Positions 20,516 through 25,868 of a DNA stretch of 64,000 nt are shown in pieces. The translations under genes were made by a program, and so were the position numbers. Every line of letters starts with the position of its first letter. The first letter of the stretch is position 1. The stretch is taken from positions 640,001-704,000 of the forward strand of contig OZ244937.1 in the NCBI GenBank assembly GCA_965222075.1, in the 5' to 3' direction. The DNA is from Candidatus Latescibacterota bacterium (GTDB lineage: Bacteria > Latescibacterota > UBA2968 > GCA-2709665). The notes beneath the pieces were generated by a model. That model was not told where the DNA came from. It did no database searches and saw only the letters and a program-made list of their open reading frames with translations.

Positions 20516-20862
20516 GAAATGAACAATTTTACGATGTCCAACCAACCAGAGAAAAAATAGGGCTTATTGATGCAAACGCAACTTCTTTCTGGGTCTTGCA
20601 CTCAAACCTTTACGACAATTGCGCGAGTTGGCTGCGCTTTCTCCAGAGGCAGAGAAGTAGATGGCTGATTCGATTGATCCCATCTTAATTGAGATAAACA
20701 AATCGCACGTTCCCCTCCAAACCCACCTCACGTTCTACAAAGCGGATACCCGTTGCCTGATGTGTCAGAATTCCCTATCTTAAAAGTATTCAATGGGATG
20801 TTCTTCTTAGTGGATGGATATTCTTTCATTTTCCGGGTGTTTCAAACCAGGTGGAGTGACCG

Positions 20863-21050
20863 ATGTCAACGCGACAGGTTGTTATCGAAGTGCCGGAAAG
20901 GGTGTTGCTGGCTGCAGGTCGTTGAGCCCCATTCTGTACCTTCCGAATGGCTGGCGCTGGACCTGGGTGCAGGGGAGCTTGCTGCGCTGGCGCTTGGGCT
21001 GGAAAATCCAGACCGGGTGGTTCTTGTGGATGAGCGGCTGGCACGGCGCA
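20863..21050 (+). pseudogene. Collapsed UPF0175 antitoxin / DUF3368 PIN toxin remnant
   Basis: MSTRQVVIEVPERVLLA (UPF0175-like start with SD) runs directly into WLQVVEP..LDLGAGELAALALGLE..VLVDERLARR (DUF3368 core) in another frame. Confidence 0.6.
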
Positions 21051-21160
21051 CGTATTGGGAGACTCTCAGCCTGCCTACCGAGGCGGTGGAATACGGTTGA
21101 CCAGCAGGGTGGTCCGGCACTACGATGAGTTGGAGGCGCAGGCGGTCGCGAATGCAGGGA

Positions 21161-21197
21161 GCCCCCGATAGGACAGATTTATCGGGGCTTTTTTTTG
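21161..21197 (+). terminator. Intrinsic terminator-like hairpin
   Basis: CCCCGATA/TATCGGGG stem followed by T8. Confidence 0.6.
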
Positions 21198-21302
21198 TTT
21201 TTTTACGTCTCAGGAGGATACTTTCTTTTGATATGTGCGTCAATTGTTATGAACGCGTTCGAAGCAGGGTATTAACGTGCAGCGTTGCGGAGGGGACATC
21301 CG

Positions 21303-22745
21303 GTGGAGCGACCGGAAGACCGGGATCTGATCGAGCAGACGCTGGCCGGAAATCAGAGGGCGTTTGCCGTTCTGGTGGAACGCTACGGGCGGGAGGTGTA
21401 CGCCCGGATTGGCCGGTGGGTGCGTTATCCGGAGGATGTTGAGGATCTGGCACAGGAGGTTTTTATCAGGGCGTACTCTCGACTGGGGCAGTTGAGAGAG
21501 GTGCGCAGATTTCCGGCGTGGCTTCGGGCGATTGCCGACAATACGGCGCGGGGGTGGCACCGCCGCCGGATTGTGCAGCTTCAACTGGGAGAGGCCCTGG
21601 AGGCCGAATGGGCCGCTGAAACGGGGAACTCGGGAGACGAAGCGGAGGCCCGGAGGATTCGGGCAATGATTCGGGATGCGCTTCGGTCTCTTTCCGAAGC
21701 GCACCGGCAGGTGATTGTGCATCACTATTTTAAAGGATATACGTACGTGGAGACGGCCGATCTGCTGGGCCTGAAGGTGGATACGGTTCGCAGCCGCCTT
21801 CAGAAGGCGAGACGGCGATTGAGAGAGGAGATGATTGCGATGAGAAATGCGGATACACCCATGCAGGCGTTTGAACTGACGCGGAAAGACCTCAGCGCGT
21901 TGCGCTGGGGAATAGCGTTTGTCAGCCAGGATGAGAACCGTCCCATTCTTCAGGGGGTCTGTTTGGATACGGGGGGGCGGGTTGTTGCGACCGATGGCGC
22001 CCGGCTGCTGATCCGGACCGCGGAAGGTCTGAAGAAGATCGCGGCTCCCGTTATCCTGGGGCCCTGGGGCGAGGTTGAGATTCCCGATGCGGAGCGGGCG
22101 ACGCTTTCCATTGGAGAGGAAAGCGCTGTTTTACAGGTTCAGGGCGAACCGGATCGCCCGGTTTCAGTGATAGAGGGGTCTTATGTCAAGTACGAGTCGG
22201 TCATTCCCACGGATGCGCCCGTTTGCTCCGTAACGGTTCAGACGGGTGCGCTGCTGGAGGCAGTCGAACTGATCGGCGAGCATCTGGCGCCCCGACATCC
22301 GGTGGATCAGGAGGAGACGTGGCGATACTCCCCGGCGATGGAAATCCGGCTCTCTGTACCGGACCAGACGCTTTCGATGATCACGGCGCGAAATATGGGA
22401 TATCGCTGTAAGATGCCGGACGGGGAGTGGCGCCCATACGATCCACACAAAGACGCCGGGGAGGGGCCACCCGCGGACAGTCCGGACTGGACTTTCACGA
22501 CCACGGTTCAGGCCCGGGTGGCCATGAATGGGCCGGAGGAGATTTTTCGGATCGGGGTGAACCATGCGTACTGGCGGTCCGGCATTTGCGCCCTTGAGGC
22601 GGGTCGAGAAGAACCGATGGATTTTCGATTTGTGGGAGTACACAAAGCGATTCTGTGCTCACTTCCCGACCGGGAGGATCGAAAGACGCTGGTGATGCCG
22701 TTGAGGTTGAAACGGGACGAAGCGGGTTCGGAGGATAGCGGGTAG
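21303..22745 (+). CDS. ECF sigma-70 factor fused to a C-terminal DNA polymerase III beta-clamp-like module
   Basis: Sigma region 2 (EDVEDLAQEVFIRAY..FPAWL) and region 4 (YVETADLLGLKVDTVRSRLQKARRRL). DnaN motifs follow: SQDENRPILQGV, VVATDGARL, IEGSYVKYESVIP, IGVNHAY and LVMPLRL. Confidence 0.85.
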   Translation: MERPEDRDLIEQTLAGNQRAFAVLVERYGREVYARIGRWVRYPEDVEDLAQEVFIRAYSRLGQLREVRRFPAWLRAIADNTARGWHRRRIVQLQLGEALEAEWAAETGNSGDEAEARRIRAMIRDALRSLSEAHRQVIVHHYFKGYTYVETADLLGLKVDTVRSRLQKARRRLREEMIAMRNADTPMQAFELTRKDLSALRWGIAFVSQDENRPILQGVCLDTGGRVVATDGARLLIRTAEGLKKIAAPVILGPWGEVEIPDAERATLSIGEESAVLQVQGEPDRPVSVIEGSYVKYESVIPTDAPVCSVTVQTGALLEAVELIGEHLAPRHPVDQEETWRYSPAMEIRLSVPDQTLSMITARNMGYRCKMPDGEWRPYDPHKDAGEGPPADSPDWTFTTTVQARVAMNGPEEIFRIGVNHAYWRSGICALEAGREEPMDFRFVGVHKAILCSLPDREDRKTLVMPLRLKRDEAGSEDSG

Positions 22746-22768
22746 GCGTTTGTGGTTCGTGGACTCCG

Positions 22769-22798
22769 GGGCAACCGTTTGTGGTTGCCCTTTTTTTT
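22769..22798 (+). terminator. Intrinsic terminator after the sigma gene
   Basis: GGGCAACC/GGTTGCCC stem followed by T8. Confidence 0.75.
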
Positions 22799-22948
22799 GT
22801 GGTTCGGACATACCGGTGGTGGGTAAAAACGTGTCCGGGTTTTCTCTTTGGGGTTGACATTCGGGCGATCAGGATACATGATACGTCTTTGGTTTGTCGA
22901 AGCCTTTGGACAGCCACGGGAGGCTGCCTCTACGCAAAGGAGACGGTT

Positions 22949-24112: not shown

Positions 24113-24982
24113 CTATGTGTGACACCATTTTTTCAGGAGCGAATTCACGATGTCCAGCGTGCCGTCGTTGTATATGACCGCGTCATAAGCAGAGGCGTAT
24201 TGTTCCAGGGTTGCTTCTGTGCTATCGTTTAAAAAACCGAAACGAATCATACAGGTGTGGTCTATTCCGTCGCCCATCCTTACGTCTTCCAGGGTGTCTC
24301 CCAGGAGCAACACGTTTCTCCTGTGGACGATTTCGCGGTAATAACCGGACTGTTTTGCGCGTTCCTCGTTTTTGTTCAGGCTGTGAATCAACGGTTTTTC
24401 ATAGTCTCTGGCCCTGCCTTCAGCGTCAAGAATCAAGGTGTTGGCGATGATATGGACGTTTTTTGTGAGGCGGTTTCTGGCTTCTAAATAGGCCTCAATC
24501 ACATTTTTGATCCCTGCCGACAGGATCAGGAGGGGGATGTCGTGTCGGTCCAGGATATCGAAAAAATCCCATACCCCCTCTCTCATCCGCAGTTTGTCTT
24601 CCTCAATGATGCGTTCTATAATCCTTCTGTTGAAACCGTATGCAACCAGAAGCTCGTACTGCTTTGACCACCACTGGCGCATTTTGACGATTTTTTCATT
24701 CTCTAAGATATCAGGGGATGTTTCTATGTGACGGTAGGTGTCAAAGAGGGCTTGAGACCGCCGGTTGAAGCCTTCGTCCAGGTAATTTTTATTGATGATG
24801 AGCGAGTAGGTAGACTGGTCTTTGCGGTCTGCTGTTGACGCTCTGGTCAGGGTTCTGTCCCAATCGCTTACAACGTGGAGTTCGCCGATCCCGTCTGCCT
24901 TCAGTTTGTCTAATTTCCGTTTCCATTCCTCAGGGTTTGAAATCCGCACGCTGCTTATGTTGTGTATTTTGTCGTGACTCAC
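24113..24982 (-). CDS. HAD-family pyrimidine 5'-nucleotidase, UMPH-1 / cytosolic 5'-nucleotidase III type
   Basis: HVVSDWDRTLT (DxDxT), EKIVKMRQWW, LILSAGI, IHSLNKN, NVLLLGDTLEDVRMGDG, FGFLND and YDAVI. Confidence 0.82.
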   Translation of the reverse strand: MSHDKIHNISSVRISNPEEWKRKLDKLKADGIGELHVVSDWDRTLTRASTADRKDQSTYSLIINKNYLDEGFNRRSQALFDTYRHIETSPDILENEKIVKMRQWWSKQYELLVAYGFNRRIIERIIEEDKLRMREGVWDFFDILDRHDIPLLILSAGIKNVIEAYLEARNRLTKNVHIIANTLILDAEGRARDYEKPLIHSLNKNEERAKQSGYYREIVHRRNVLLLGDTLEDVRMGDGIDHTCMIRFGFLNDSTEATLEQYASAYDAVIYNDGTLDIVNSLLKKWCHT

Positions 24983-24992
24983 GTCGGGTACT

Positions 24993-25868
24993 TTACGATG
25001 AACATCGGCGTTCCTGTTGGAGACCGACGGCCGAATGGACCGCAAGCGTGATCAGGACGATTGCGCCACCGATAAATGCCTGCGCCCCCGGCTGCTCGCC
25101 CAGCGCGAGCCAGACCCAGTAGGGACCGATTACCATTTCCAGGAGCATCAACAGGTTCACTTCCGGCGCTGGAAGGTATCGCGGCCCGAGCACGATCAGG
25201 CCCAGGGACAGGGGCAGGACGACCAGGCCCAGCAGGAGCAGGTACAACACATCGTTTCCTGCAACGGCCCAGGGGGTGGCCAGCGGGGAGACGAGCACGG
25301 CGGCCATCAGTCCGCCGATGGCGACGCTCGGGGTCATATCTACCTCGGGTACCGACCGCAGCACCGCGAACTGCCCTCCCAGGCAGCATGCGCTGCCAAG
25401 GGCGCACAGGTCGCCAACCAGCAGGCCGCTTTGCAGGTTGCTCGACACGGTGACACCGAGGCCGCAGAGGGCTGAGAAGATGGCGACCCAGGTGCGCTGC
25501 GCAACCGGTTCCCCCAGGAAGGTGCGGCTGAAAATGGCGGCGGCCAGCGGTCCGGCGCCCAGGATGATCAGGGTGTTGGCAACGGTCGTGTGGATGATGG
25601 CCAGAACGAAAAATATCGTGCCGACGGCCATCAGCCCACCCACCAGCAGTCCCTTCCGGCCAACCGCTCGAAACGCATCTCTTACGCCCTGATGAGGGCG
25701 CAGAGAGACCAGAACCGTGAGGCCTGCGGCCATAAGCAGGCCGCGCCAGAAAATCAGGGTCCAGGTGTCGGTTTCAATCAGGCGAATAAGCAGGCTGTCC
25801 GGACTCAGGATCAGGACGCCGCTGACGGTTATCAGAATGCCTTTGAGGTGAGGAGGGTGTGTTGCCAT
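24993..25868 (-). CDS. DMT/EamA family transporter
   Basis: About 10 TM segments; LSPDSLLIRL, FWRG, FLGEPV, GDLCAL and GPRYLPAPEV..LLE. Confidence 0.88.
   Translation of the reverse strand: MATHPPHLKGILITVSGVLILSPDSLLIRLIETDTWTLIFWRGLLMAAGLTVLVSLRPHQGVRDAFRAVGRKGLLVGGLMAVGTIFFVLAIIHTTVANTLIILGAGPLAAAIFSRTFLGEPVAQRTWVAIFSALCGLGVTVSSNLQSGLLVGDLCALGSACCLGGQFAVLRSVPEVDMTPSVAIGGLMAAVLVSPLATPWAVAGNDVLYLLLLGLVVLPLSLGLIVLGPRYLPAPEVNLLMLLEMVIGPYWVWLALGEQPGAQAFIGGAIVLITLAVHSAVGLQQERRCSS

Follow-up and report, generated by a model that had tools for sequence, protein, structure and literature searches.

An ECF sigma factor of a Latescibacterota bacterium with a C-terminal extension derived from domains II and III of the DnaN sliding clamp

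The window analyzed in this study is a 64,000-nucleotide stretch of contig OZ244937.1 (positions 640,001 to 704,000 of the forward strand) of a Candidatus Latescibacterota bacterium. At positions 21303 to 22745 it carries a gene that encodes an extracytoplasmic function (ECF) sigma factor fused in frame to a domain related to the bacterial beta sliding clamp (DnaN). The C-terminal extension goes back to an old copy of domains II and III of the beta clamp and has diverged strongly from them; this extension type on an ECF sigma factor is new within the literature searched. The pocket that accepts the clamp-binding motif (CBM) is kept nearly residue for residue in its aligned sequence, including subsites I and II. 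By analogy with other ECF sigma factors that bear C-terminal extensions, the sigma factor may be gated by ligands of this pocket, whose occupancy would switch it on or off; we regard this as quite possible and put it forward tentatively.

The gene is a single open reading frame (ORF) on the + strand, which runs from TTG 21285 or GTG 21303 to 22745. The database protein (P0002, 480 aa) corresponds to the start at GTG 21303 (feature to 21305), and a Shine-Dalgarno (SD) sequence, GGAGG (21289-21293), was found 9 nt before this codon. TTG 21285 was disfavoured as the start because the strain variant represented by a contig of run X8 reads CTG there (T>C at 21285), which removes the alternative start. 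Compared with the window, this contig showed 28 substitutions and two indels, of which 22 and one, respectively, fell within 21263-21341 (the 5' leader and the first codons), and the remainder of the fusion gene was nearly identical to the window.

The N-terminal 183 residues form a complete ECF sigma factor, and the clamp-like part (~290 aa) then follows in frame. Sigma region 2, which serves core binding and -10 recognition, was located at 21372..21569 (+) by PF04542 (E 7e-12, residues 30-95 of P0001), and sigma region 4, which serves -35 recognition, at 21663..21827 (+) by PF08281 and PF04545 (Sigma70_r4_2 at residues 127-179). These matches exceeded their Pfam cut-offs, and TIGR02937 scored 102.4 bits against a cut-off of 42.9 for the sigma part; in the Pfam scan of this part, regions other than 2 and 4 (1.1 and 3) gave no match, which is the composition of an ECF (group 4) sigma factor. 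The top PDB matches were likewise ECF sigma factors (E 1e-18). The complete regions 2 and 4 that the earlier note had read from the letters of the sequence are therefore borne out. The last helix of region 4 was predicted at residues 159-183 and is followed by a strand at 188-193, so that ~4 residues would separate the helix from the first strand of the clamp module.

The relationship of the C-terminal part to DnaN became clear at the level of the family and the fold. When the single sequence was used for searching, the clamp match was weak (7ybd_A, E 0.07; PF02767, E 0.18, with 12.5 bits below the Pfam cut-off of 27), and PF00712 and PF02768 gave no match in the Pfam scan of the fusion protein. 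When the family profile was used against the PDB, 50 distinct beta-clamp sequences were matched at E<=0.001 (best 3e-13), with profile positions 8-142 corresponding to clamp positions 125-267 and profile positions 217-285 to clamp positions 300-365. The AlphaFold2 (AF2) model of residues 182-480 (299 residues) had a predicted local distance difference test score (pLDDT) of 88.8 and a predicted template modelling score (pTM) of 0.86, and all matches listed for it by Foldseek were bacterial beta clamps, not PCNA (best E 1.3e-15). As shown by VIA-align, model residues 1-288 were superimposed onto E. coli beta 120-366 (Z 20-24) with a root-mean-square deviation (rmsd) of 2.4-3.0 Å over ~235 residues; the module consists of DnaN domains II and III, and domain I, with it the three-domain architecture of DnaN, is absent. 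The earlier note had listed five DnaN motifs in a given order and had proposed a two-domain clamp lacking domain I. All five motifs were found, in the correct order, and the profile, the AF2 fold and VIA-align agree with the two-domain reading; the contrary outcome named there, a region without a clamp fold, is contradicted by Foldseek and VIA-align.

Based on the profile, the AF2 model and VIA-align, the equivalent of DnaN domain II was placed at 21864..22202 (+). The equivalent of domain III (22203..22709, +) contains two family-specific insertions and ends in the pocket motif VMPLRL, and a short acidic tail (pLDDT <50) with the TAG stop occupies 22710..22745 (+). The insertions in domain III bear the family-specific invariant residues R331-H332, Y342, G366-Y367 and W396, and one of them occupies the former ring-interface site. 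In a maximum-likelihood tree, the 10 modules included formed one group on a long branch with support 100/100, apart from 24 canonical DnaNs, and the identity between a module and its host DnaN was ~24-27%. The genome of this organism holds a separate canonical dnaN.

To describe the CBM pocket, its residues were taken from the part of PMC11139829 that lists them, and an alignment was made of 14 family members, E. coli DnaN and a further 12 canonical clamps (E. coli numbering is used). R152, G174, V247, P363 and R365 were identical in all 14 family members, and L155, T172, L177, V360, M362, N320, Y323 and M364 were retained or conservatively exchanged. Position 176 was R in 10 of the 14, and R246 and V344 were variable in the modules, as they are in canonical clamps. 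P242 was replaced by V in every module, a residue that is also present in this organism's own DnaN. In the fusion protein itself, the domain II pocket residues are R213, L216, T230, G232, A233, R234, L235 and V295. Moreover, at position 175 (the bridging H175 of E. coli) the module carried the same residue as the DnaN of the same genome in eight of 10 genomes (A/A in four, H/H in two and S/S in two), and the other two pairs, T/S and S/A, were similar small residues. This match does not appear to reflect a recent duplication, because the modules lie on a long separate branch and share so little identity with the host DnaN; the agreement, as far as aligned residues tell, is suggestive of parallel change. 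With the 14-member mapping and the 10 module/host pairs, the claim of the earlier note that the peptide-binding pocket is kept was confirmed.

The features by which a clamp closes a ring around DNA were analyzed in the same way and gave the opposite picture. Where domain III takes part in the ring interface, I272 was replaced by H, Y, Q or F among the 14 family members, E298 by R in 13 of them, and E304 by A, G, V or S; L273 stays L or M, and overall the head-to-tail interface is not preserved. K198 was not retained in family members either. In real clamps domain II alpha2 lines the channel; in its place the module has a shorter loop, LGPWGEVEIP, which is not helical in the AF2 model. The net charge of the aligned helices was compared between 10 modules and 15 host DnaNs, a comparison that covers sequence and predicted model only: it was -2.6 in the modules versus +1.5 in the host DnaNs for domain III alpha1, -2.3 versus -0.4 at the place of domain II alpha2, +0.1 versus +1.0 for domain III alpha2, and +0.6 versus +0.7 for domain II alpha1. 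The positively charged inner channel of DnaN is, on this basis, not present in the modules. With domain I gone, the interface altered, a channel helix missing and the charge of the channel reversed, the module is unlikely to encircle DNA as a ring. Given that three defining features of DnaN (the three-domain architecture, the head-to-tail interface and the positive channel) were looked for and found missing, the module is not, functionally, a member of the DnaN family. A prediction of a three-copy module complex scored 0.00 in both runs, which were made without controls, and it was counted neither for nor against a ring.

The distribution of the fusion was determined by several searches. A word-indexed search returned 48 relatives plus one canonical DnaN. 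Sigma Pfam domains were present in 41 of the 48; the remaining seven, of 268-306 aa, consist of nothing but the module and in five cases start at or near the junction Met; all but two of the seven are known solely from contigs <5 kb. Among genome contigs, 27 loci were found, comprising 24 fusions and 3 ordinary dnaN genes, and the fusion loci were labelled as Latescibacterota/Latescibacteria metagenome-assembled genomes (MAGs; 21), Gemmatimonadota (2) and 'uncultured bacterium' (1). One open frame of 460-506 codons was present in 23 of these 24, complete chromosomes included. In the other (L001, G001:C228:983-1849, from a genome of the same genus), an in-frame TAG lies inside the module and the open frame has 380 codons; the stop may mean that this copy is a pseudogene, or that the MAG, which has 320 contigs, was misassembled here. 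A survey of the phylum, which answers the earlier note's call to look for the same architecture, found exactly one copy in 55 of 151 sampled genomes. The 55 copies belong to four of 14 families, all in one class, with open frames of 370-662 aa, and 54 have no internal stop. Within the same sample, several genomes that are 97-99% complete gave no match to the fusion, and the gene is therefore accessory.

An exhaustive profile search gave 39 representatives at E<=1e-30, which grade into canonical DnaN, and eight of 10 more distant long matches were also ECF fusions. Distant relatives in which the two domains stand alone (266-284 aa) were seen among P0073, P0080, P0084, P0087, P0067, P0074, P0112 and P0120; in P0073 (324 aa) the module follows a zinc-ribbon-like CxxC...CxxC N-terminus, and in these stand-alone and zinc-ribbon relatives the C-terminal MPxR motif is degenerate. 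Nearest by features in the ESM Atlas were clusters of short proteins annotated as 'putative DNA polymerase III subunit beta', ~245 aa long in Fusobacteriota and 193-196 aa long in phages; with scores of 0.83-0.84 (all matches <0.9) they are no more than leads, and they hint at other truncated clamp-like proteins. In each of two metatranscriptome libraries, a single short contig (200 nt in one, 169 nt in the other) was identical to the gene at 22180-22381; this is not proof of transcription, and the remainder of the gene has no RNA cover in these libraries, from which nothing follows.

Within the gene, a putative second translation start was recognized at the sigma-clamp junction. A GAGGAG sequence (21825-21830, +) lies 9 nt before ATG 21840 (to 21842), which encodes the conserved M180 of P0002. 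The earlier note had pointed to this site, and it proved to be conserved: at a distance of 9-11 nt, RAGGAG precedes the conserved Met in 23 of the 24 loci and in 14 of 14 further ones (37/38), and the sole exception has GGGGAG. The hexamer occurs in two codon registers, mostly as AAG GAG or GAG GAG and in one clade as AAA GGA GAG, so that protein conservation alone is not sufficient to account for it. As a baseline, such a hexamer precedes 123 of the 17,613 internal in-frame ATGs of this genome (0.7%). A second product, a free clamp module of 301 aa, is thus likely to be made from the internal start, and the conserved site predicts two proteins from one gene. An alternative reading is that the internal RAGGAG is a translational pause site.

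Upstream of the gene, a putative ECF-type self-promoter was located at 21216..21241 (+), with a -35 element GGATAC (21216-21221), a 16-nt spacer and a -10 element CGTC (21238-21241). The motif [GC]GA[TC]ACTTT[CT], followed 12 nt on by CGTC, CATC, TATC or GATC, was present in 25 of 25 aligned loci, which represent three synteny types, and in 8 further loci from other families GATAC-type motifs ahead of CATC or CAAC were seen by eye only. The strict motif occurred once in the 5.36-Mb genome. A looser pattern gave 49 matches in 21 genomes versus 26 for the reversed control. The conserved upstream motif is built like an ECF promoter, which naturally suggests autoregulation, and the sigma factor probably reads its own GGATAC-N16-CGTC promoter. 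No anti-sigma domain was found by Pfam among 8 neighbours in the window and 10 neighbours from related loci; with a fused extension of ~300 aa (>50 aa), the protein belongs with the C-terminal-extension ECF sigma factors.

Taken as a mechanism, the clamp module would most likely not be a ring on DNA but a soluble receptor, one that receives the proteins or compounds docking in the pocket of the clamp; this reading follows from the kept pocket together with the loss of domain I, the ring contacts and the positive channel. Pocket occupancy would turn the sigma factor on or off, which is proposed because, by analogy, ECF sigma factors that lack an anti-sigma factor and carry C-terminal extensions are controlled by the extension. 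The sigma factor would drive its own GGATAC-N16-CGTC promoter, and the internal ribosome-binding site and Met would yield free module that competes for the same ligand and so sets a threshold. Of this scheme, the gating by the pocket and the autoregulation are inferred, as is whatever is said on the ligand's identity and on whether and to what end the short form is made. Of the two functions that the earlier note had offered for a one-component regulator, the sensing of clamp ligands fits the kept pocket, and the tethering of RNA polymerase through a ring does not agree with the acidic channel, the lost helix and the changed interface.

In a narrower form of the scheme, the module would hold the sigma factor inactive, perhaps through the linker motif VQLxL, and would release it once the pocket is contested by free CBM proteins, by clamp binders of phages or by natural products that target the clamp, with the free module acting as a buffer; we consider this form doubtful. 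If it were true, a bacterial 'integrated decoy' of the replication hub would be wired directly to RNA polymerase. The sigma2-sigma4 linker (21570..21662, +) contains RRRIVQLQL, in which V91 and Q92 were invariant in 30 of 30 sequences, and the linker Q was retained in 34 of 36 fusions, distant ones included. Q stands at the same linker place in 6 of 15 other ECF sigma factors of the same genome, where VSLxxL-type linkers are common. That the linker VQLxL acts as an internal CBM is therefore a weak idea: because its fit to the CBM is partial and similar linkers occur in other ECF sigma factors, an intramolecular pseudo-ligand is weakly based.

Several observations weigh against gating by the pocket. 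VQLxL matches just the first four positions of the CBM consensus, and the full-length AF2 model has no confident packing between the sigma factor and the module (pTM 0.58, linker pLDDT 52-56). The co-variation at position 175 amounts to about two parallel changes among related genomes, and small residues interchange easily. Retention of the pocket is equally compatible with recruitment or with loading by the clamp loader. Moreover, the search for a regulon found no second promoter copy beyond the gene's own, and the 5 recurrent extra sites inspected in relatives, as well as one extra loose match in this genome, are all intragenic.

Other roles of the pocket were weighed against the same data. 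According to the first, the module mimics the host clamp pocket and traps foreign agents aimed at the clamp, for instance peptides of the griselimycin type or pocket-plugging phage or toxin proteins; binding would activate the sigma factor, which would raise the expression of its own gene and hence the amount of free decoy. Such an integrated decoy would explain why the pocket tracks that of the host DnaN, V242 and position 175 included, and the loss of ring and channel would keep the module out of replication. That the gene's own promoter is the sole clear copy, that the internal start would supply extra free module, and that the distribution is patchy and accessory also speak for it, as does the self-resistance by extra DnaN copies in griselimycin producers. 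However, there is no consistent linkage to genes for defence, efflux or biosynthesis, and the context varies between clades; no inhibitor is known for this phylum, and endogenous ligands fit the same data. This explanation was judged to be unlikely.

Likewise of low probability is a role as a recruitment adaptor and not a switch, in which the module would join CBM-bearing replication or repair proteins and the sigma-RNA polymerase holoenzyme at promoters. The conserved pocket that tracks the host DnaN is consistent with it, as is the short spacing between the last helix of sigma4 and the module, which would place the module upstream of the -35 element, and a link between clamp and transcription exists for phage Mu MuC (see below). 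On the other hand, the searches of the genome and of its relatives found no target promoters besides the gene's own, and recruitment would face competition from free module made at the internal start.

It is most improbable that three modules form a PCNA-like loaded ring that tethers the sigma factor to DNA, as a covalent version of T4 gp45-gp55, with free modules from the internal start filling the other two ring places. The relative position of the two domains does correspond to a 120-degree arc of the beta ring (rmsd 2.4-3.0 Å with both domains included), the kept pocket could serve the clamp loader, and the internal start could give mixed rings. Against this stand the charge of domain III alpha1 (-2.6 vs +1.5), the non-helical, acidic place of domain II alpha2, the loss of K198 and the alteration of I272, E298 and E304 in family members. 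Finally, that two genes were joined through a missed stop or a chimeric contig has practically no chance of being correct: apart from the in-frame TAG of L001, 23 of the 24 genome loci are single open frames, all 55 survey matches lie in open frames, and contigs of other runs cover the whole gene (run X8, 6,134 nt) or bridge the sigma-clamp junction (run X2, 5,047 nt) without indels in the ORF, so that the fusion is genuine, as the earlier note had supposed.

Among known systems, the closest counterparts are ECF sigma factors with other fused domains. According to the main texts of PMC7826278 and PMC8999054, C-terminal extensions replace the anti-sigma factor in such proteins, and the ECF41 extension contacts a motif in the sigma2-sigma4 linker. 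The groups described there (ECF41, ECF56, ECF294 and ECF295 bearing SnoaL-like domains, ECF42 with tetratricopeptide repeats and ECF238 with a Cys-rich domain) share with the present protein the sigma2-sigma4 core, a fused domain of >50 aa and the absence of an anti-sigma gene nearby. The terms clamp, DnaN and DNA polymerase had 0 occurrences in these main texts, the supplementary tables lying outside this count. In contrast to these groups, the extension here is DnaN-derived. The earlier note knew of no characterised sigma-DnaN fusion, and no description of a sigma-clamp fusion was found in the literature searched, although supplementary ECF group tables might list such a group.

Compared with the bacterial beta clamp, the module has the same fold of domains II and III, the same relative domain position and the CBM pocket residues, but it is without domain I, the ring interface and the basic channel and has two insertions in domain III. 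In the late transcription of phage T4, the gp45 clamp acts with the sigma-like factor gp55 and with gp33; gp45 is a distinct protein that is loaded on DNA as a trimeric ring, to which the late factors bind through C-terminal motifs, at the hydrophobic pocket of the clamp. Both systems couple a sigma-type factor physically to a sliding-clamp fold, whereas here the link is covalent, the module is bacterial-beta-like and the DNA-ring features are lost. Producers of griselimycin and mycoplanecin carry extra DnaN copies as self-resistance, which are full three-domain clamps. These copies resemble the module as second clamp-like proteins whose pocket matters apart from replication, but they retain three domains and are unfused to a regulator. 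Phage Mu MuC carries a CBM and uses the host ring beta clamp together with sigma70 for transcription activation, as described in bioRxiv 10.1101/2025.01.04.631326. In that account the clamp pocket is likewise used in bacterial transcription activation, whereas here the sigma factor itself bears the clamp-derived pocket.

ECF sigma factors count among the principal routes by which bacteria signal, and whenever a new type of fused extension came to light, so did a new input. If pocket gating is true, a clamp-derived input domain would tie transcription to the clamp protein network or to clamp-attacking agents, and the clamp fold would be reusable in soluble form to receive peptides. The module, a naturally occurring and probably non-ring form of the pocket of a validated antibiotic target, could serve as a small scaffold for binding clamp ligands.

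The gene is flanked by the terminator-like hairpins that the earlier note had reported. The upstream hairpin with its T run (21163..21197, +; hairpin 21163-21187) has a 10-pair stem with 5 GC pairs and, being terminator-like, would end the preceding transcription unit; an equivalent hairpin and T run precede the gene in related loci. The downstream hairpin with its T run was located at 22768..22799 (+; hairpin 22768-22791) by a hairpin scan. A 115-aa ORF at 20753-21100 (+), which gave no Pfam match, ends before the upstream terminator at 21163. The neighbours were unlike among the three synteny types and consist of metabolic and transport genes (transporters, an aminotransferase and a nucleotidase). 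A pyrimidine 5'-nucleotidase (UMPH-1) gene, at 24113-25045 (-) in the window, lies convergently downstream of the fusion in 10 loci, and in the synteny group L003-L012 it is followed by a gene for an HU-type DNA-binding protein; these recurrent neighbours are read as plain synteny, and a link to DNA metabolism is less favoured. As for the other sigma factors of this organism, its genome contains 16 ECF-like ORFs, and 5 of them lie in long open frames of 487-827 codons (examples in G000:C1 are 4704849-4707329, 3538966-3540837, 538182-540464, 3468558-3470018 and 3457667-3459190), which may carry other large C-terminal extensions.

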